Assembly: GCA_016234595.1 (NCBI GenBank)
Contig: JACRBG010000011.1
Coordinates: 37,227 to 101,226 of the forward strand
Direction: 5' to 3'
DNA length: 64,000 bases
Source of the DNA: Chloroflexota bacterium
Lineage (GTDB): Bacteria > Chloroflexota > Anaerolineae > Aggregatilineales > J027
Shown here: positions 22,278 through 38,065 of the stretch, one piece after another
Position numbering within the stretch: position 1 is the stretch's first letter
How the letters are laid out: every line of letters begins with the position of its first letter
Notes under the pieces: model-generated
What the model was told of the DNA's origin: nothing
Database searches by the model: none
Seen by the model: only the letters and a program-made list of their open reading frames with translations
Program-made: the position numbers and the translations under genes

Positions 22278-23721
22278 TCACCAACTCCATGAGATTTTTT
22301 GAATGCCTCACTGCGAAATAGCTGAGACTTAACACAAGACTACCCAATAGCATTATTCCCAGCGACCCATCATGCTCGATGTCCACATTCCAGCGAACAA
22401 AAATGTCTTGGTTGGTGATACCGTAGATGCGATGAATCTCACTCCCATCGGGGCGAATTTGCCAATAAGTGCTGGGTTGAGCGCTGCTGGGTCGGCTTTG
22501 CACAACCAGCCATTCATCGCCATCCCAGTGCCGTAGCTGGATAGGCATATCAAAAGAGTGTAGGGTTTGAATGAGGCCATCACGCAAGCGCACCCGCCGC
22601 AGATTGGATTTGCCAGTTTGATTATCGGCACTGGTAAATAACAGCCACTGGTGATCCGGGGTATAACCCCATATTTGTTCTAAGAATGGGTCAGTCACAA
22701 GATCAGCAATAGCACTGCCATCTAAGGCTACCTGCACCAAGCGAGTTCCGCCATCACGCCGCGCAATGACAGCTTGTTGGTTAGGGGTGAAATCCACAAA
22801 AGCCGCATCTTCTAATATCCAGCGCGGGGTCGCACCATCCGTAGAAGCCAGCGCAAAAAGGCCTGTCATGCTATTGGCATTCTGAATGGTCGAGGCAACT
22901 AAAAGATCGCCGTTTTGTACCCAACCCGAAATATCACTATGGTTAGAAGGTTCAGCAGCACTGAGGGCGGTTAATTGCGAGCCATCGGTTTGCAGGCGAT
23001 ATAAGACGCCATTTCGCACCACCAACATCCATGCTTGGGTAGGCCAACCCCGCAGGACAAAATGCCCCTCGAAATTTTCGGTAAGGTTAGTAATGTCTGT
23101 CCCATCTAGGCGCACGCGATAAACCCCAATATTACTTGCCCCTTGGCGCCGCCCACTAAAGGCTACCCATGTGCCATCGGGTGAAAAAAACAACCCCGGC
23201 CCATTTTGTACCCCGATATAGCCATTAAAGCCGTCCGTTAGATTACGCTGGTCTGTACCATCGGCGCGAATGGCCCATAGACTGGGGCGAAAACCCGCCC
23301 GATTCCATAAAAATAGCAACCATTGGCGGTCGGGAGTCCAGACGATTGTCCCCACTTGAATGCGTTGATCCCCTAATTGTTGCATAGCAGTCCCATCGGG
23401 GTGAATACGATAGAGCCTACCTGTTGGCCTACCCGCAAAATCAAAACGGATTTGAGGGTCTTGTACTTGAAAATATAACCACTCCCCCGCTTTGTCCGAT
23501 GCTGCCCCAACGAAATAGACTAAATTGTGGTCATGGGTCAATCGCTGTGAAATACCGGTACTAGTGCCGACCAGATATAGCCGCCCTTCGCCCTCCCGTT
23601 GCGACAAAATCATGGCCGTATTAGACGGATTGGATAGGGCACGGATGAACATCATCCCGCCACTTGAGACGAGGAGAATCAAAGCAAAAACAGAGCAGAG
23701 TGTCCGCCCTAAAAAAGACAT
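22252..23721 (-). CDS. TolB/PD40-like beta-propeller protein, membrane anchored
   Basis: Repeated W/F-S/T-PDG..(W)L and (I/V)R.DG..(Q)LT motifs; N- and C-terminal hydrophobic segments. Confidence 0.75.
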   Translation of the reverse strand: MSFLGRTLCSVFALILLVSSGGMMFIRALSNPSNTAMILSQREGEGRLYLVGTSTGISQRLTHDHNLVYFVGAASDKAGEWLYFQVQDPQIRFDFAGRPTGRLYRIHPDGTAMQQLGDQRIQVGTIVWTPDRQWLLFLWNRAGFRPSLWAIRADGTDQRNLTDGFNGYIGVQNGPGLFFSPDGTWVAFSGRRQGASNIGVYRVRLDGTDITNLTENFEGHFVLRGWPTQAWMLVVRNGVLYRLQTDGSQLTALSAAEPSNHSDISGWVQNGDLLVASTIQNANSMTGLFALASTDGATPRWILEDAAFVDFTPNQQAVIARRDGGTRLVQVALDGSAIADLVTDPFLEQIWGYTPDHQWLLFTSADNQTGKSNLRRVRLRDGLIQTLHSFDMPIQLRHWDGDEWLVVQSRPSSAQPSTYWQIRPDGSEIHRIYGITNQDIFVRWNVDIEHDGSLGIMLLGSLVLSLSYFAVRHSKNLMELVNGGFPSKN

Positions 23722-24188
23722 CTTTATGACCTCCTAAAAACTGTAACCTTTAATTTTTTCTCTTTTATATCATGCAACAAATTTACTGTCTTAGGCCTGC
23801 CAAACTTGTGCCATGTTGGAAATCTCATCCATATAGACCTATTTGGGTGGGTGGCATAGCTTGTTTATTGAGGATGAGAAAAAAAGTAGACGAGTGCCCA
23901 CAGTGAAACAGACCCTGAACCGCTAACACGCGCTCCCCATCAGGGTCTTGCCCACTTGTTAGAGTCAATAGCCTATCCACAACGATCACAATTGGAGATT
24001 TCGATAACGACTGCCTAGAGAGGGGTTTGGCAGGGAGAGTTTTGAATTCCCCCTGCACCATCTGAAGTCAGCCATTACCAGTGACTTCAATCGGTAGTGT
24101 ACCACACCTTTTGGTACAGCCGATTTTTGAAGGAATCACTGAAGGCAAATCGCAAGTGTATTCGGGGTTTACCATCAGGAGGATAGCT

Positions 24189-25019
24189 ATGACCCCAGTT
24201 TTTGTACTCACCAATCATAAGGGCGGCGTGGGGAAATCTACGTCCGCGACAAATATCGCGTTTGGCATCGCACAGATGCTGGCGCAGTTCGGCGTTGCCA
24301 ATCATCGGGTGCTGTTGATTGACACCGACAGTCAAGGGCACGCCACCCTCGTCACTACCAGTCGGAATGATTTCGGACGTGAGGATAGTCTGTATACCGT
24401 ACTCAATGCTGATCGCAAAGATGCCGCCACTGTATTGAAGCAATGTATTGTGGCAAGCGAATGGGACGCCGATTTGCATGTCCTCCCCGCCTCCCCACTA
24501 CTCGAAGCCGCCGAACGGGAATTAATCGCCGTGCCCGGTGCGCCCTACCGATTATCAGAACCCCTCGCTCAGCTTGCCAGTCACTATGCAGCCATCGTAA
24601 TTGACACCCGCCCTTCCTTCTCCCTACTCACTGAAATGAGTCTAATCGCCGCGACGGATGCGCTTATCCCAATTGAGCCGCGTTATCTAGAAACAGTCGG
24701 TTTGGAATCAGTGGTCAATAAGATTGAGTCCATTCGGCAGGGCTGGCGTTGTCCGGATTTGAAGGTGAGTGGCATCGTCGTCACCAAACTCGACAAACGC
24801 ATGAAGGGCCATGTCGAGATGGTCGAAAGCCTCAAAGCCCATCCGGTACTGGGGCGGTTGCTGTGTGGGGTCATTCCGGCCAACGAAGCAGTGGCCTATG
24901 CCCATCATGCCCATAAAAGCGTGTATGCGTACAACCCCGAATGTCCCGCCAGCCAAGCCTATGCGGTGTTGGCAGCCCGTCTCATCAAAAAAACAATGGC
25001 GATTAGGGGAGGTGCGTGA
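24189..25019 (+). CDS. parA: ParA family partition ATPase
   Basis: Deviant Walker A KGGVGKST, LIDTDSQG, VIDTRPS; ATG 24189 after AGGAGG. Confidence 0.93.
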   Translation: MTPVFVLTNHKGGVGKSTSATNIAFGIAQMLAQFGVANHRVLLIDTDSQGHATLVTTSRNDFGREDSLYTVLNADRKDAATVLKQCIVASEWDADLHVLPASPLLEAAERELIAVPGAPYRLSEPLAQLASHYAAIVIDTRPSFSLLTEMSLIAATDALIPIEPRYLETVGLESVVNKIESIRQGWRCPDLKVSGIVVTKLDKRMKGHVEMVESLKAHPVLGRLLCGVIPANEAVAYAHHAHKSVYAYNPECPASQAYAVLAARLIKKTMAIRGGA

Positions 25020-26224
25020 TGGCAAAAAAAGCCGATACTCCCAATCGGATTAATGCCCTGCTGCAAGATGTGGGGCAGATGATGATTTTGAATGCTGATC
25101 CCGCTGAACGGTTGGATGATAGTCAACTCCGTGTTGAAAACCTGCCCATCCAACTGGTGCGGCCTGATCCGGCCCAACCCCGGCGAGTGTTGCCCGAAGG
25201 GATTTACCAAGCGTTTCACCAAGAACACCTCACGCCGTATCAAGCCCTGAAGGAACTTGTTCAATTGGTGCAAATCGCGGCGCGGCAAAAGGGGCGACCC
25301 TTTACCCATGTGCTCGATTTACTGCCGAATCCGAATGACGAAACTGAGGCGGAAGTCACGACGACACTCTTGCCAGAGGAAACTCTGCTGCGGGATTTGG
25401 TCAACTTGGCCGTGACGATTCGGGATGATGGTCAGGTCAATCCGCTGACCGTGGTGGATAAATCCGAAGGGGTGAGCCACATCTATCAAATTGAGACAGG
25501 CGAACGGCGCTACTGGGCGACATGGCTGATGATGGAATTCCTACCGGGGTATCAAGGCAATGGTTCTATCCCTTGCATCATTGTCCCCTCCAATCGAGCC
25601 TCGGTTTTTCGTCAGGCTAAAGAGAACACCTCGCGGGCTGGTCTGAACGCCATTGCGATGGCACGGCAGGCGGCACTGTTGTTGTTAGCTGTACATGGTA
25701 TTGTGCCACCCCTTGAAGGGCCAATCTCCAACGATTTCTATCGTCTGGCTCTCGAATTTACCCTGAGAGATAAGCGCGACTATGCCAACGATATTCTTGC
25801 CGCGATGGGTGGAATTACCCGTAGCTACTTCAGCTACTACAAATCCTTGTTGCGCCTTTCTGATGACGCGCTGGAATTGGCGGATCGTAACAGCATTGAT
25901 GAAAAGAAACTCCGCTATGTTGTTTCACTGCCGGTGGAAGCTCAGGTTGAAATGGTGCGCCAGATCATAGACTTTGGCTTGACTAGTGCGCAGGTGAAAG
26001 AACTCTGCTCAGATGAAGCAGGGCTGGATAAGTCAGTGGATGATCAATCTCCTAAAAAAGCAAAGCAATTAATCAAACTCATCCGCGCCACAATGGACAC
26101 CACCCCAGCCCAATTTGCACAGGCTTTAGTTGATCAAGAAAAAACCGTGCACATGGCAAAAGCTCGCCTCAATGAGCTTCGTGAGCTGTTTGACGAGGTA
26201 GAGGAATTTCTGAGCAGGCAATAA
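25019..26224 (+). CDS. parB: ParB family partition protein (CTPase N-domain)
   Basis: VRPDPAQPRR, GQVNPLTV, IETGERRYWA (GxxR motif); coupled to the parA stop. Confidence 0.85.
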   Translation: MAKKADTPNRINALLQDVGQMMILNADPAERLDDSQLRVENLPIQLVRPDPAQPRRVLPEGIYQAFHQEHLTPYQALKELVQLVQIAARQKGRPFTHVLDLLPNPNDETEAEVTTTLLPEETLLRDLVNLAVTIRDDGQVNPLTVVDKSEGVSHIYQIETGERRYWATWLMMEFLPGYQGNGSIPCIIVPSNRASVFRQAKENTSRAGLNAIAMARQAALLLLAVHGIVPPLEGPISNDFYRLALEFTLRDKRDYANDILAAMGGITRSYFSYYKSLLRLSDDALELADRNSIDEKKLRYVVSLPVEAQVEMVRQIIDFGLTSAQVKELCSDEAGLDKSVDDQSPKKAKQLIKLIRATMDTTPAQFAQALVDQEKTVHMAKARLNELRELFDEVEEFLSRQ

Positions 26225-26248
26225 ATTGTTGACCCGGGTCAACAATTT
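26223..26248. promoter_or_regulatory. Perfect 26-bp palindrome, candidate parS centromere
   Basis: aaattgttgacccgggtcaacaattt, no spacer, directly at the parB stop codon. Confidence 0.7.
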
Positions 26249-26261
26249 TGAGGAGCAACCC

Positions 26262-26366
26262 ATGACTAACCGATCACGTGACCCGCCGAAAAAAGAAAAA
26301 CCGCCTTACCAGTTAGGGCAGGCGGACAGGTCAGGTCAATCAATTAATCAAAATCAATTGCAATAA
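26262..26366 (+). CDS. 34-aa leader ORF upstream of the replication protein
   Basis: GAGGAG RBS at about 26250-26255; MTNRSRDPPKKEKPPYQLGQADRSGQSINQNQLQ*. Confidence 0.5.
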   Translation: MTNRSRDPPKKEKPPYQLGQADRSGQSINQNQLQ

Positions 26367-26375
26367 ACCGTAGCA
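26288..26375 (-). ncRNA. Predicted counter-transcribed antisense RNA (ctRNA-like, about 85 nt)
   Basis: Minus-strand promoter TTGCAG-N17-TACAAT and terminator CCGCCU-N13-AGGCGG-UUUUUCUUUUUU. Confidence 0.65.
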
Positions 26376-26381
26376 TGTTTC

Positions 26382-26410
26382 ATTGTAATTGGTTCGTGAC
26401 CTGTCTGCAA
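26382..26410 (-). promoter_or_regulatory. sigma70-type promoter of the antisense RNA
   Basis: -35 TTGCAG (26410-26405), 17-nt spacer, -10 TACAAT (26387-26382). Confidence 0.65.
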
Positions 26411-26465
26411 GCACCGTCAACCACTATTTGACATTTGAAAACTTAACCCGGACAGGAGCAACACT

Positions 26466-28814
26466 ATGGCTAGTGTGTCACAGGAATCGCTGATCGTTCA
26501 GGCCGCCCAATCCAGTAGCCTCTTGGATGCGGCATTGATGTATGCTCGTTTAGGGATGAGTGTTATCCCCCTGAAAGGGAAACGCCCTTCACTGTCTAGT
26601 TGGACGCAACTTCAACAAGTTCGCGCCGATGCCGTTGTAATTCATCGCTGGCAGCGGAATGGGCTGCTGCATAACGTGGGCATCGTCTGTGGAGCAGCCT
26701 CACAAAATCTGGTTGTTTTGGATACCGATGGTGCAGCCAGCTATCCAGCTTTTGCTGCTATGTTCCCTAAACTAGCGGAGACCTATACCGTTGCGACGGG
26801 CAGCGGCAAAGGCCACCACGTCTATTTCTATGTGGAAAAACTGCCTGAGAGTATCAAGGCTATGGGTCTGCCGATTGGCAATCTTGAATTGTGCGCGAAT
26901 GGGCGACAGGTGGTCGCTCCGCCAAGTTTGCATCCAATCACGGGTAACCCCTATCGGGTGCATAAGGCCTTGGATATTCTGCGGGTCGAAACGCTTAATG
27001 AATTGGCTGAGTGGATTAAGTCGTTCAAGGCCAAACCTGCGTTTGCACCAGTCCACTTTTTGCCAGTGTCACCACATGATTCTGCCAAATTGAATCCAAA
27101 GGTAATGGAGGAAATTGAACGACATTTTCTGCGACAGGGGTATCGAGAAGTCGGCGAATGGCTGCATGGGCCGTGTATTTATCCCCATCGGCATCAGCAT
27201 GGCGACCGCAACCCTTCCTTTGGATTCAATCGCTTCAGCGGATTTGGCTCGTGTTTTGTGTGTGGCACGATTCTGGCGAAAGACATCTGTGCAGCGGTTG
27301 GGATTGATGTCAGTGTGCTAGGCGGGTTGGTGGAAAAGTCTTTTAACACCAACCCCCATCACCAGCCCACAGCCGTTAGGCTGTCTTTACCACCTACGGA
27401 ACCTCCGATTCCAAGTGAAACCAAGCTATCTAGTATTGCATTGCCACCAAGCACCCCGCCACCTTCTGAACCGAGTCAGGGATTTGCGATGAATGATCTC
27501 AAACTCCCAGAGTGGCTCAAACTCTATGTGGAATGGGCCGGGGCGACGGGTAATCAGACACCGTTATCTTTCCATCTTGCGGCGGGATTGTGGCTGTTGT
27601 CGGTCGCGGTGGGGCGACGTTTGTATGGTGCTGCCCCTTGGGGAGTGAAGATTTTCCCCAATCTGTATTTGATGCTCATCGCGGCGACGACCTATTATCG
27701 CAAATCCACCGCTTATAAATTGGCGGAGGGCATCGCACATGAGGCCATTCCACATATGCTCATGCCAACACCGGGTTCACCCGAACGTTTTCAAGAGGCT
27801 CTGGCGGGCCAACTACCGGGTAATTTTGACAAGCTCAATCCAACCGAACAAGAACTTTTTCGCAAGGCACAGCCGTTTGCAGCCCAGCGCGGGTTGCTTA
27901 AGGATGAGGTCGCTGGATTATTTGGGGTCATCAACAAGCGGGATTATATGGTCGGCATGAAAGATTTGTTGATGGAACTCTATGACTGCCCTGATCGCTC
28001 TAGTAAAGAAACACAGGCGGGAGTCACGATTGTTGAGAAGGCGGCTTTATCCATCTTGGGCGTGACGACTCCGGCAGGTTTGGCGGCTGGGGTGAGTGAG
28101 GCGGATTGGGCGAATGGCTTGCTGGTACGCTTTGCCTTGATTACACCTGAAACAGATTATGCCGAGCGCCCCGCAGCCATCGCCTTTCAGTCACCACCAC
28201 CGAAGCTCATTGAGGGCTTACGTCGTTTACACGAGCGCCTGCCAAATCCTGTCCGGACAGAACGCGGATTGACCCCACCGAGTGCCCTGCAATTGGATGT
28301 CACCTGCTGGCGTGAATGTCAAAATTATGGCGATCATCTGCGCCGCCTGTGTGCACCGCAGCAAGACACTGAATTAGATGAGCGACTCAAGGGCGTCTAT
28401 GGGCGGCTGCATGTCCAAGCCTTCAAACTTGCTACCCTGATGGCTGCCTTAGATTGGCTAGATACCGACACCTCGGCGCCAACACTCACAGTTGACCATT
28501 GGGTGATGGGGGAGACTATGGCTGAAACATGGCGTATGAGCGCTCATCGTTTGCTTGAACAAATGGATCGGCGGGGTGAGGCTAGTCATGAACGTCGCCA
28601 GCAAGATACATTGTTACGGGCGATTCGACAGGCAGGGGCTGAAGGGGCGAGTCTACGGGTGTTATATCGTAATCTCCACCTGACTGCCCAACGTGCGCGA
28701 TTGTTGGCCCAAGAATTAGCGCGTGCAGGCTTGGTGGTGGAACGGCGTTTTAGTGGCATTGAGTGGTATGTTGCTAGTGAATATGCCACAGATGAGACTC
28801 CTGCCATCGGGTGA
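26466..28814 (+). CDS. Putative replication initiator: bifunctional primase-polymerase + Zn-binding domain + DUF3987/YfjI-like NTPase + winged helix
   Basis: N-term LGMSVIPLK, NVGIVCG, LVVLDTD, TGSGKGHHVYF, QVVAPPSLH; CIYPHRH...DRNPSF...CFVC; NLYLMLIA....RKST and GLLKDE. Confidence 0.82.
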   Translation: MASVSQESLIVQAAQSSSLLDAALMYARLGMSVIPLKGKRPSLSSWTQLQQVRADAVVIHRWQRNGLLHNVGIVCGAASQNLVVLDTDGAASYPAFAAMFPKLAETYTVATGSGKGHHVYFYVEKLPESIKAMGLPIGNLELCANGRQVVAPPSLHPITGNPYRVHKALDILRVETLNELAEWIKSFKAKPAFAPVHFLPVSPHDSAKLNPKVMEEIERHFLRQGYREVGEWLHGPCIYPHRHQHGDRNPSFGFNRFSGFGSCFVCGTILAKDICAAVGIDVSVLGGLVEKSFNTNPHHQPTAVRLSLPPTEPPIPSETKLSSIALPPSTPPPSEPSQGFAMNDLKLPEWLKLYVEWAGATGNQTPLSFHLAAGLWLLSVAVGRRLYGAAPWGVKIFPNLYLMLIAATTYYRKSTAYKLAEGIAHEAIPHMLMPTPGSPERFQEALAGQLPGNFDKLNPTEQELFRKAQPFAAQRGLLKDEVAGLFGVINKRDYMVGMKDLLMELYDCPDRSSKETQAGVTIVEKAALSILGVTTPAGLAAGVSEADWANGLLVRFALITPETDYAERPAAIAFQSPPPKLIEGLRRLHERLPNPVRTERGLTPPSALQLDVTCWRECQNYGDHLRRLCAPQQDTELDERLKGVYGRLHVQAFKLATLMAALDWLDTDTSAPTLTVDHWVMGETMAETWRMSAHRLLEQMDRRGEASHERRQQDTLLRAIRQAGAEGASLRVLYRNLHLTAQRARLLAQELARAGLVVERRFSGIEWYVASEYATDETPAIG

Positions 28815-28816
28815 AT

Positions 28817-29003
28817 GCGACAAATGCGACACACGCGACATGCGACAGTGCGACAGCGATAAAAAATATGGCTTTGGCTATTATCATGCTCACGGCGTTT
28901 TCCGGAATGACACTGAAGAAAATGCTATGAAGCACCATAAGTCTATATCGCTATGAGATATATTTGTCGCGCTGTCACGTGTCGCATCTGTCGCGTTTGT
29001 CGC
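28817..29003. repeat. Two inverted arrays of GCGACA hexamers, candidate replication origin
   Basis: GCGACA at 28817, 28826, 28835, 28842, 28850; TGTCGC at 28965, 28980, 28989, 28998 and TGTCAC at 28973; about 110-bp spacer. Confidence 0.75.
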
Positions 29004-29091
29004 ATAAATTTGAGGGCCACATGGAAAGGTTAGTAAGGACGAGTATAATCAGCAGGTCAGTTTGGCTGGCTCACGAAAAGGGGCATTTTTT

Positions 29092-30042
29092 ATGACAGTT
29101 TCATTGGTTACAGGCGGCGCTGGCTTCATCGGTTCGCATCTTGTTGAGGCCCTGCTTGCTGAAGGGCATGAAGTACGTGTGGTGGATAATTTTGCTACAG
29201 GCAAGCGCGAGAACTTATACCCATCCATAAACAAGATCAAGTTATACGAAATTAGCATTACCAATGCTGCTGCGCTTCAAGAAGCGATGGAAGGAGTCAA
29301 TTACGTTTTCCATCAAGCTGCTATCCCATCTGTGCCGCGTTCGGTGGCTGACCCAGTCACTTGCCATGAGGTCAATGTAACGGGGACATTCAATGTGTTG
29401 AATGCCGCACGATTGGCAGGTGTCAAGCGAGTAGTCTATGCCGCGTCGTCATCAGCGTATGGCGATATTGAGGGTGATTATAAACAGGAAGATATGGCCC
29501 CGCGACCATTATCCCCCTATGGTGCGGCAAAATTGGCGGGTGAATATTATCTGCAGGTGTTTTATCGGGTATATGGCTTAGAGACTGTCAGCCTGCGCTA
29601 TTTTAATGTTTTTGGCCCACGCCAAGATCCTAACTCTGAATATGCGGCGGTCATCCCTAAATTTGCAACTGCGATGCTAGAAGGCCAGTCTCCCACGATT
29701 CATGGTGACGGTACGCAATCTCGTGATTTCACCTATATTGAAAATACGGTAAAAGGCAATCTACTGGCTGCAAAGAGCCCACATGCTCCGGGGCAGGTCA
29801 TTAATTTGGCCTGTGGGCAGCGCTACACATTGTTGGATTTGGTGAACGCGATTAACGATTATCTTGGCACGAATATTAGGCCGACATTTGCTCCAGCCCG
29901 TACAGGTGATATTAAGCATTCGCTCGCGGATATTTCGAAGGCGGAAGAATTATTGGGTTACGCCCCTGCAACACTGTTTAAAGACGGCGTATCGAACACA
30001 GTGGACTGGTTTGCCGCGCAACCCAAGAAGGAACAGAGTTAA
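29092..30042 (+). CDS. NAD-dependent epimerase/dehydratase (extended SDR, WbpP/GalE-like)
   Basis: VTGGAGFIG, YGAAK, YFNVFGPRQ. Confidence 0.93.
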   Translation: MTVSLVTGGAGFIGSHLVEALLAEGHEVRVVDNFATGKRENLYPSINKIKLYEISITNAAALQEAMEGVNYVFHQAAIPSVPRSVADPVTCHEVNVTGTFNVLNAARLAGVKRVVYAASSSAYGDIEGDYKQEDMAPRPLSPYGAAKLAGEYYLQVFYRVYGLETVSLRYFNVFGPRQDPNSEYAAVIPKFATAMLEGQSPTIHGDGTQSRDFTYIENTVKGNLLAAKSPHAPGQVINLACGQRYTLLDLVNAINDYLGTNIRPTFAPARTGDIKHSLADISKAEELLGYAPATLFKDGVSNTVDWFAAQPKKEQS

Positions 30043-36346: not shown

Positions 36347-38065
36347 ATGGAGCTTACTCAATACATTCGTCTTTTCAGAAAGTGGTTATGGCTTATTCTT
36401 TTGGTAGCGTTTTTGGGTGGAAGTAGTAGCTTTATCTTCCGCAGCCGCCAAGAAAAAACCTATCAGGCACAAGCCACCATTTTTGTTGGTAGTTTCCGCG
36501 AAGACCCCAATCCGGGTAGTGGTGAAATTAACACAGGTACCCAACTGGCAACGACCTATGCAGCGTTAGCCACGACCTATAGCATTGCCCAAGCTGCGGT
36601 CGAGGCTGGAGGATTTCCAATTTCTCCTGATGGCCTGCGCGGCAGTATTACGACCAGCATTGTTCCTGATACCTCTCTTTTGGTTTTGAGTGTTACCTAT
36701 ACCGACCCTATCTTAGCTGCGGATATGGCGAATCAGGTTGCAGAACAGCTTATTCTGAATAGCCCAACAAATTTGACATCCGACCAGCAAAGCCAACTTG
36801 ATTTAGCCAACGCTGAAATATCACGGCTGACAGGTGAGCTTGAAAAAGCCCGTCAAGACTTGAATGTGATAGATGGTCAAATATCAACTGCAACTGATCC
36901 TGAGGAAATTCAAAGTTTAACTGATCGTCGGGACACGTTAGTAGCCCAAATTACCGATATTTCTTCAACCATTGCGCAATATTCTAGTACCGTCGAGAAT
37001 TTGCGTCGGCGGACCAATTCCCTCGAAATCATTGAGCGGGCACGTGTACCTAGTAGCCCCACTGGTACAGGAACACTTCAAGTTACTTTACTTGGTGCAA
37101 TGGTAGGAGCAGCTTTGGCTTTTGGGGCAGTTCTACTCATTGAATATTTGAATGACACCATTAAAGTGCCGGAGGAAGTAACCCAACTTATATCCGTGCC
37201 AGTTTTAGGGACAATTTTTCGGTTTGGGAAATCGAGCGAAGGCTATTCAAAACGCTTGATTACGTATTTACAGCCGAACTCACCTGTCTCAGAAAGTTAT
37301 CGTTCTCTCCGCACAAACCTCCTCTATACTGCACAAAATGGCTCAAAACAAGCCTATATTGTGACGAGCCCCGGCCCAGAGGAGGGCAAGTCTGTTACTG
37401 CTGCCAACCTAGCTGTGGTGATGGCAACTGCCGGACTACAAGTATTGTTGGTAGATGCAGATTTGCGCCGACCCAAAGTTCATGAAATCTTCGATTTGAA
37501 GAACGAAATTGGTTTAACGACGCTGTTGTTCGCCGATCCAACAAATCCCTCAAAACCTTCAGACGTAGATGCTGAAAAGAGTAACGCCGAATTCGCTACA
37601 CGGTTACGTCAATGTATTCAAAGCACATCTATCCCACGCCTGCGTGTCATCACTAGTGGTTTTATTCCCTCTAATCCCGCAGAAATTTTGGGATCGGCTT
37701 TGATGAAACGTTGGTTTGATCTCTTTCAATCTTCTACCAATATTGATGTTATAATATTCGATACACCACCTGTGTTGGTGGTAGCAGATAGTGCCGTTTT
37801 AGCTGCGACTATCAATGTTCCAATTTTGCTGGTTCTCCAAGCAGGGCGAACACGCCGGGGTGCAGCCTTACGCACTAAGGCACAACTGGATACGTTGGGA
37901 GCCGAGTTGGTGGGGGTTTCGTTGAATCAACTGAATCCTGCCGAACAAAATTATGGCTATGGCTATGGTGGTGGCTATTACTACTACTATGCCAACTCCG
38001 AAAACGGACAAGGTCAACTTTCGGCGTGGAGGCGTCTAGTCAATCGTTTTAAAAAGCCCAATTAG
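36347..38065 (+). CDS. Polysaccharide co-polymerase / tyrosine autokinase (Wzc/CapB-like)
   Basis: Wzz-like N-term, SPGPEEGKS, DADLRRP, IFDTPP, Tyr cluster YGYGYGGGYYYYY. Confidence 0.93.
   Translation: MELTQYIRLFRKWLWLILLVAFLGGSSSFIFRSRQEKTYQAQATIFVGSFREDPNPGSGEINTGTQLATTYAALATTYSIAQAAVEAGGFPISPDGLRGSITTSIVPDTSLLVLSVTYTDPILAADMANQVAEQLILNSPTNLTSDQQSQLDLANAEISRLTGELEKARQDLNVIDGQISTATDPEEIQSLTDRRDTLVAQITDISSTIAQYSSTVENLRRRTNSLEIIERARVPSSPTGTGTLQVTLLGAMVGAALAFGAVLLIEYLNDTIKVPEEVTQLISVPVLGTIFRFGKSSEGYSKRLITYLQPNSPVSESYRSLRTNLLYTAQNGSKQAYIVTSPGPEEGKSVTAANLAVVMATAGLQVLLVDADLRRPKVHEIFDLKNEIGLTTLLFADPTNPSKPSDVDAEKSNAEFATRLRQCIQSTSIPRLRVITSGFIPSNPAEILGSALMKRWFDLFQSSTNIDVIIFDTPPVLVVADSAVLAATINVPILLVLQAGRTRRGAALRTKAQLDTLGAELVGVSLNQLNPAEQNYGYGYGGGYYYYYANSENGQGQLSAWRRLVNRFKKPN

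Follow-up and report, generated by a model that had tools for sequence, protein, structure and literature searches.

Directly behind the rep gene of a replication module in a Chloroflexota bacterium lie two arrays of a GCGACA hexamer, set in mirror image on either side of an AT-rich spacer, and the comparisons described below make it very probable that these arrays are the binding sites of the adjacent replication protein, Rep, presumably contacted through its C-terminal winged helix. An origin is the most likely role of such a structure. The fuller reading, in which each hexamer is an iteron read by one Rep winged helix and the arrays and spacer together form the origin of a Rep-dependent replicon, is held with moderate confidence, and with scarcely less confidence the arrays and spacer are taken, by analogy with characterised systems, to be an active origin. 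The stretch of DNA analysed, hereafter the window, is 64,000 nucleotides long and corresponds to positions 37227–101226 of contig C57 in a 59-contig genome that is 97% complete and is assigned by its homologs to the Anaerolineae within the Chloroflexota.

Layout of the arrays and the surrounding module

The left, rep-proximal array (28815–28855, plus strand) consists of five GCGACA copies starting at 28817, 28826, 28835, 28842 and 28850, that is, at steps of 9, 9, 7 and 8 bp with gaps of 3, 3, 1 and 2 bases. The right, rep-distal array (28965–29005) carries four GCGACA and one GTGACA on the minus strand, which read on the opposite strand as TGTCGC at 28965, 28980, 28989 and 28998 and TGTCAC at 28973, and its steps of 8, 7, 9 and 9 bp are the exact mirror of those on the left. 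The two arms, of 41 nt each and 109 nt apart, are 85% complementary, and a degenerate extra hexamer pair, GCGATA at 28856 and TATCGC at 28946, is located just inside them. Both sets of five copies, the left-hand spacing and the one deviating hexamer had been listed in the initial annotation and are confirmed in the sequence, as is the placing of the arrays right behind the rep stop: the left array follows one base past the TGA at 28812–28814. GCGACA occurs at a frequency of 0.57 per kb over both strands of the 5.2-Mb genome, in which the array cluster is unique, with at most three hexamer copies per 60 bp elsewhere.

The intervening 109-bp spacer (28856–28964), a candidate unwinding region, has an AT content of 62%, compared with a mean of 52.5% (sd 5.9) over the window; this ranks it in the top 5.7% of 109-bp windows, and 30-bp stretches within it reach 67–70% AT; its earlier description as a spacer of about 110 bp with AT-rich stretches was therefore fair wording for an enrichment that is only moderate. 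The spacers of the three closest relatives, whose Reps are 84–85% identical to that of the window, measure 83–84 bp and are 71–77% AT. Comparison of the window with these three relatives shows the left array to be 85–88% and the right array 95% identical, against approximately 50% identity at synonymous-type sites of rep, while the spacer is only ~34% identical yet AT-rich throughout. Judged by these identities the arrays are under purifying selection, and conserved arrays beside a diverged but AT-rich spacer are what one would expect where binding sites lie on either side of an unwinding region.

The module begins with a gene for a parA-type partition ATPase (24081–25019, plus strand; Pfam AAA_31, E 1.8e-31, and CbiA), whose product matches the NCBIfam models ParA_partition and partition_RepA below their cut-offs, followed by a gene for a ParB-like protein with the Pfam domains ParB_N and HTH_ParB (25016–26224, plus strand) and weak matches to NCBIfam parB_part and noc. 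A perfect 26-bp palindrome (AAATTGTTGACCC/GGGTCAACAATTT, 26223–26248) stands at the parB stop and occurs once in the genome. Type-A relatives have a palindrome at the same place with compensatory changes in both arms, and in loci L004 and L042 there are two copies that are close to canonical parS, of the TGTTTACGCGCGTAAACA type; on this sequence evidence the palindrome is a parS-like candidate site of the ParB-like protein. Between parB and rep lies a conserved leader (26249–26465, plus strand), with a small ORF from 26263, a hairpin (CCGCCT..AGGCGG), a long-range pairing or inverted repeat of 26322–26333 with 26397–26408, and the blocks 'cattgtagt' and 'gtctg.ctgcaa' that are kept in all type-A loci. 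It is a possible control region for copy number, antisense or translational, and an Rfam search of 23600–29200, leader included, returned no relevant family. The rep gene itself occupies 26466–28814 on the plus strand, and downstream of the arrays follows the gene for an NAD-dependent epimerase, part of a polysaccharide locus.

A synteny breakpoint coincides exactly with the left edge of the module (23814–23895), and the module and the polysaccharide genes occur together in three congeners (G306, G307 and G308). As a separate observation, in congeners G304 and G307 the flank bearing histidine-kinase and PD40 genes runs into DNA that in the present genome is found on contig C3. The genome carries a normal dnaA and, at 169440–171662 of contig C25 (locus L082), a second intact Rep of 62% identity to that of the window, associated with GTGACA arrays, a 75-bp spacer holding a hairpin, and then an HU-like gene; two Reps with different hexamer 'addresses' thus reside in the same cell. 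The 'satellite' context originally proposed does not fit these surroundings: ParA and ParB belong to the module, no integrase was noted, and a search of IMG/VR viral contigs yielded no close relative. A phage-inducible chromosomal island was likewise dismissed, as ParA/ParB and ordinary metabolic genes flank the module, no tRNA is present, and the viral contigs gave no relative.

The Rep protein and its hexamers

Rep (782 aa) combines a Prim-Pol domain of the AEP type (residues 23–181, E 1.7e-23), a Cys/His cluster, a P-loop ATPase region matching DUF3987 (residues 476–685, E 3.4e-11) and a predicted winged helix at its C-terminus. Prim-Pol and DUF3987 are the only Pfam domains detected in Rep, and no RepC or Rep_3 domain is present. 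PHROG phage 'DNA primase' families match the protein in its two halves, no NCBIfam model covers it, and a sequence search of the PDB gave the prim-pol domain of pRN1 ORF904 as its sole, weak match (E 0.018), with no sequence match to the solved SaPI Reps. Among 26 Rep homologs the motifs RKST (412–415) and LLKDE (477–481) are invariant. The former lies within an invariant A-x-T-T-x-Y-R-K-S-T (residues 406–415, window 27681–27710) located where a Gly-rich P-loop would be expected, and the latter within an invariant RGLLKDE (residues 475–481, window 27888–27908); the AlphaFold2 model is of very low confidence for residues 475–535 in spite of their high conservation.

Modelling of residues 340–782 with AlphaFold2 gave a helix-helix-helix-hairpin arrangement for residues 705–770 (coding region 28578–28775, plus strand) with a block pLDDT of ~85–89. 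A Foldseek search with this model matched many winged-helix DNA-binding domains (target-normalised TM 0.5–0.83, rmsd 1.2–2.5 Å), all matches being limited to the last 60–75 residues and none having an E-value better than 0.1, whereas the ATPase part is modelled with low confidence and matched no helicase structure. The C-terminal domain of Rep is accordingly predicted to be a winged helix, in which residues N736, H738 and T740 would occupy the turn and the beginning of helix 3, with G764 at the tip of the wing. Recognition of origins by the C-terminal winged helix of PrimPol-DUF3987 proteins has itself been predicted (Kazlauskas et al., PMC5862659).

Similar arrays behind homologous genes, the presence or absence of which had been named as a check on the initial proposal, were indeed found in two sets of loci. 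Eighty genome loci with Rep relatives of 50–86% identity were assembled, 72 of them usable, and at least five copies of one hexamer occur in the 200 bp past the rep stop in 58 of the 72, whereas only 23 of 3859 control windows taken from these loci reach that number; in a separate, previously unused metagenome set, arrays of at least four copies were present in 61 of 64 loci. The hexamer differs by lineage, being GCGACA, GTGACA, CCGACA, CTGACA (with ATGACA) or GCGAAA, and in 42 of 43 loci the block nearer to rep runs forward, reading NNGACA on the rep strand. The two blocks usually lie next to each other (median gap 9 bp), and no gap is as large as that in the window; the AT-rich spacer is particular to a small clade, being present here and in the three close relatives. 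Three types of neighbourhood can be distinguished: parA-parB-rep-array (type A; 14 loci, including the window), RHH-rep-array-HU-like (type B, the majority), in which neither ParA nor ParB is encoded within 6 kb, and rep-array-ParM-like. Across these types Rep is the sole constant partner of the arrays.

Several features of the relatives may be recorded in their own right. An RHH (CopG-like) gene precedes rep in the majority of them, and a small HU/IHF-like gene (Pfam Bac_DNA_binding) stands directly 3' of the arrays in most of the loci L007–L080 (e.g. L062:8335–8634), with a solitary extra forward hexamer beside it, ~20 bp past the reverse block. In the deepest-branching clade (L044:3046–4065, L046, L048 and L065) the arrays are followed by an actin-like ParM/ALP gene, and since they are longer and more complex there, they may double as a type II centromere. 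The subclade of L010, L012, L017, L063 and L075 has a one-sided degenerate row of hexamers (CTGACA, ATGACA, TCGACA, CTGACGACA) that has no inverted partner and is succeeded by a terminator-like hairpin. Insertion sequences or transposase genes occur in or beside the arrays of L026, L037, L043 and L074, just past the rep stop; L026 and L037 share an element end (agatgctg.tggcgaatcga), suggesting that their insertion sequence targets or tolerates the arrays.

Hexamer class is best predicted by Rep alignment columns that without exception fall within residues 707–775, and on the Rep tree the class switches at least 13–16 times. In the training set, on a tree from which the C-terminal domain had been left out, the first base switches between G and C with His or Asn at residue 738 (9 of 9 phylogenetically independent pairs, p = 0.004) and the second between C and T with Asn or another residue at 736 (8 of 8 informative pairs, p = 0.008). 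As the array adjoins the C-terminal domain and the two are apparently exchanged together, for example in L077 versus L056, covariation is in part cassette inheritance and the truly independent events are fewer than the pairs. Residue 764, at the wing tip, also follows the hexamer class. The held-out metagenome loci conform to the same scheme: His738 goes with a first base G (18/18), Asn738 with C or A and never G (41/41), Asn736 with a second base C (25/25), and Lys or Gln736 with T (33/33). In addition, the His/Asn 738 rule holds across very different C-terminal backgrounds, and the HU-like gene, although an equally close neighbour of the array, has no link to the hexamer; indeed, neither the HU-like nor the RHH protein, nor two other neighbour proteins, offered a clean column discriminating hexamer class. 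On these correlations a recognition rule is probable in which the first base depends on whether residue 738 is His or Asn and the second on whether residue 736 is Asn or Lys/Gln. The persistence of this rule in held-out loci, the lack of a comparable link to neighbouring proteins and the existence of arrays without ParB together provide good computational support for binding of the arrays by Rep.

Replicon status and competing explanations

GC skew is informative in this genome, as shown by its change of sign from negative to positive at dnaA on contig C44, yet at the array, for which a skew analysis had been suggested with the initial annotation, an origin-type switch is absent and skew is positive on both sides to ~85 kb of C57. 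Nor was a switch seen at the C25 copy or in genome G003, where a 1.8-Mb contig bears two intact copies. In the source metagenome the module was assembled at a depth of 9.0, as was the C25 copy, against 7.8–8.4 for the dnaA contig; the module DNA therefore equals the dnaA contig in depth and is single-copy, and nothing shows it to be extrachromosomal. No terminal overlap was found in 22 whole short contigs or in C57, a protein search of PLSDB returned three weak hits to the Prim-Pol domain only and no related plasmid, and the placement of Rep relative to dnaA on two long-read contigs of ~1.9 Mb is ambiguous.

The Rep family is accessory, with 0–8 copies per genome within one genus and presence in 20 of 61 relatives, and among 301 genomes sampled evenly over the phylum it was found in the window's own genome only. 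Many Rep/iteron modules of this Anaerolineae order are present in single copy inside chromosome-sized DNA, and copies, whether intact or decayed, are found on chromosome-sized contigs as well as in one complete chromosome. In the latter, the 6.1-Mb chromosome of G001, several broken or fragmentary Reps are located, for example at C1:963420–965637, 612724–622319 and 1673528–1674163, suggesting repeated integration and decay of the module. The replicon may be integrated, or else a chromid or megaplasmid present in one copy. A bolder proposition, that some modules serve as active accessory origins, be it of large chromids or of the chromosome proper, making these multi-origin replicons with orthogonal initiators and not plasmid leftovers, is judged improbable.

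If the arrays are an origin, a Rep oligomer would dock on each arm, with several winged helices occupying consecutive hexamers 7–9 bp apart; the two Rep assemblies would face each other, the DNA between them would melt, ATPase rings would load on the single strands, and the PrimPol domain would lay the first primers. The scheme is modelled on the self-loading helicases of SaPIs; physical Rep–hexamer binding, origin firing, bidirectionality, helicase activity and current autonomy of the replicon are what we infer. Melting of the middle would not be a general step, given that an AT-rich spacer separates the blocks in only a minority of the family. The parA gene, the parB-like gene and the parS-like palindrome would furnish partition for the same replicon. 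The origin reading draws on the location of SaPI and pRN1 origins just downstream of rep and on the conservation of the arrays beside a diverged AT-rich spacer. The initial proposal is supported in part. Its core, cognate sites of the adjacent Rep in a SaPI-like arrangement, draws strong support from array conservation and from covariation of the hexamer with the winged helix; the missing skew switch, the clade-specific nature of the AT-rich spacer and the ill-fitting satellite context count against other parts of it.

An alternative accepts Rep as the ligand and holds that its sites do not serve initiation now, acting instead in copy control or handcuffing, as a transcriptional barrier or regulator between rep and the gene downstream, or persisting as a silent integrated origin. 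The unswitched GC skew, the chromosome-like depth of the module, the synteny breakpoint on its left side and the copies, intact or decayed, on chromosome-sized contigs and a complete chromosome are all consistent with it, as is the common position of arrays directly upstream of the HU-like gene with a solitary hexamer beside that gene. Yet the arrays persist unchanged where an unrelated epimerase is encoded downstream, and operation on the downstream gene was rejected as their main role since that gene varies among module types; their position downstream of rep means that they cannot be a rep operator, strong purifying selection speaks against a dead relic, and the module offers no other repeat, AT-rich candidate origin or cis element that could take their place. 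To our knowledge, a PrimPol-helicase with a sequence-specific domain has no role besides origin-directed initiation. The same view of such domains is taken in PMC5862659. On balance, a present role other than initiation appears rather unlikely.

Folded as single-stranded DNA the region forms a long hairpin (−48.4 kcal/mol, z = −5.8), and the functional element might be a stem-loop of the two arms, as proposed for pRN1, whose origin is a stem-loop of ~100 nt downstream of its PrimPol-helicase gene. Over 18 loci, however, complementarity between the arms is concentrated in the hexamers (86%) and near background at the positions between them (41%), and some clades keep a single block, indicating that selection acts on words and spacing; the one-sided arrays and the covariation of hexamer identity with Rep residues further render a stem-loop very improbable, and an origin consisting of the hairpin only was rejected on the inter-hexamer figures. 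Arrays of short repeats are the centromeres of type Ib and type II partition systems. The arrays might accordingly be a partition centromere for the ParB-like protein or another adaptor, given the ParA and ParB in this module and the ParM-like gene right behind the array in a few relatives. This too is highly improbable, and was set aside: arrays occur without ParB, most array loci having no ParA/ParB within 6 kb, a separate conserved parS-like palindrome is available at the parB stop, and hexamer class follows Rep residues and not those of the neighbour proteins tested. Finally, inverted 41-nt arms around a short core, and the insertion sequences found within or beside the arrays in several relatives, could recall a miniature inverted-repeat transposable element whose terminal inverted repeats would be 41 bp long, if not a chance repeat. 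The structure is unique in the genome, on which ground such an element was rejected, and the fixed position behind rep in more than 100 loci with lineage-specific hexamers leaves both notions with practically negligible probability.

Binding of the arrays by Rep, with an origin as their most likely role, has several implications. The replication systems of secondary replicons in Chloroflexota are essentially uncharacterised, and a 2026 study of chromid-like replicons in Ktedonobacteria found no canonical Rep initiator on them (PMC13289182). A large Anaerolineae family of PrimPol-DUF3987-winged-helix Reps, unnamed by NCBIfam, can now be paired with a probable cis site. No paper linking DUF3987 proteins with iterons was found in the literature, and the new content lies in the residue–base rule and in the arrangement of multiple orthogonal modules. 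The rule is falsifiable, as residues 738 and 736 are predicted to set the first and second base, respectively. By this rule every module would answer to its own Rep through a two-base 'address' recognised by two residues of the winged helix. The manner in which genomes hold several Rep modules becomes a testable question. The collection represents a natural set of orthogonal initiator/origin pairs, and the module is a minimal-replicon candidate for genetic tools in a phylum almost without any.

Relation to known replication systems

Among characterised systems, partial counterparts exist for both the protein and the site. Phage P4 alpha is also a primase-helicase fusion whose C-terminal winged helix binds short repeated octamers at the origin; P4 differs in its bacterial-type primase domain, in a second cis element, crr, and in an origin that is not directly behind the gene, and no homology between alpha and Rep was detected. 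In the repABC replicons of Alphaproteobacteria, too, a partition ATPase, a partition adaptor and an initiator follow in that order, the last two genes are separated by a conserved regulatory leader, and a palindromic centromere is found nearby, but RepC is unrelated to Rep and the repABC origin is located inside repC. Classical iteron plasmids (Rep_3/RepA/pi/TrfA) similarly place repeated initiator sites, whose specificity defines compatibility, beside an AT-rich stretch. Their iterons are direct repeats of 17–22 bp served by WH1-WH2 initiators that recruit the host DnaB, unlike the 6-bp words arranged here as two inverted blocks and an initiator that brings its own primase and ATPase. A classical Rep_3-type iteron origin was therefore discarded, Rep having only the Prim-Pol and DUF3987 domains.

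The plasmid pRN1 is similar in a Rep that joins Prim-Pol, helicase and C-terminal domain, in the position of its origin, contained within 166 bp downstream of orf904 (PMC4234260), and in a small RHH/CopG-type gene upstream of rep in the majority type-B relatives, reminiscent of orf56. Its origin is described as a stem-loop (PMC4234260), whereas selection in the present arrays acts on hexamers and spacing and not on a stem, and a small multicopy archaeal plasmid contrasts with single-copy DNA of at least 119 kb.

A further parallel is provided by the SaPIs, whose origins lie just downstream of rep and consist of opposed penta- or hexanucleotide iterons around an AT-rich region (bioRxiv 10.64898/2026.10.17.759575), in agreement with the origin architecture on which the initial annotation had drawn. 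The iterons are read by the C-terminal winged helix of the SaPI Rep, and PriRep5 is a fusion of primase, SF3 and winged-helix domains (bioRxiv 10.64898/2026.10.17.759575), a primase-ATPase-winged-helix fusion likewise found here, where the winged helix is a predicted one. The likeness extends to an array directly 3' of rep, to two opposed sets of hexamers with mirrored spacing, to an iteron period of ~8–9 bp and to a central AT-rich region of 102 bp in SaPI5 and 109 bp in the window. Conversely, the primase here is an AEP Prim-Pol, the ATPase is of the DUF3987 kind and the host is a Chloroflexota bacterium; ParA/ParB and a parS-like site take the place of island genes, no viral-contig relative exists among those searched, and most members of the present family are without a central spacer. 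By analogy, then, the arrays would work like an origin of the SaPI or pRN1 type, yet they stand outside both families.
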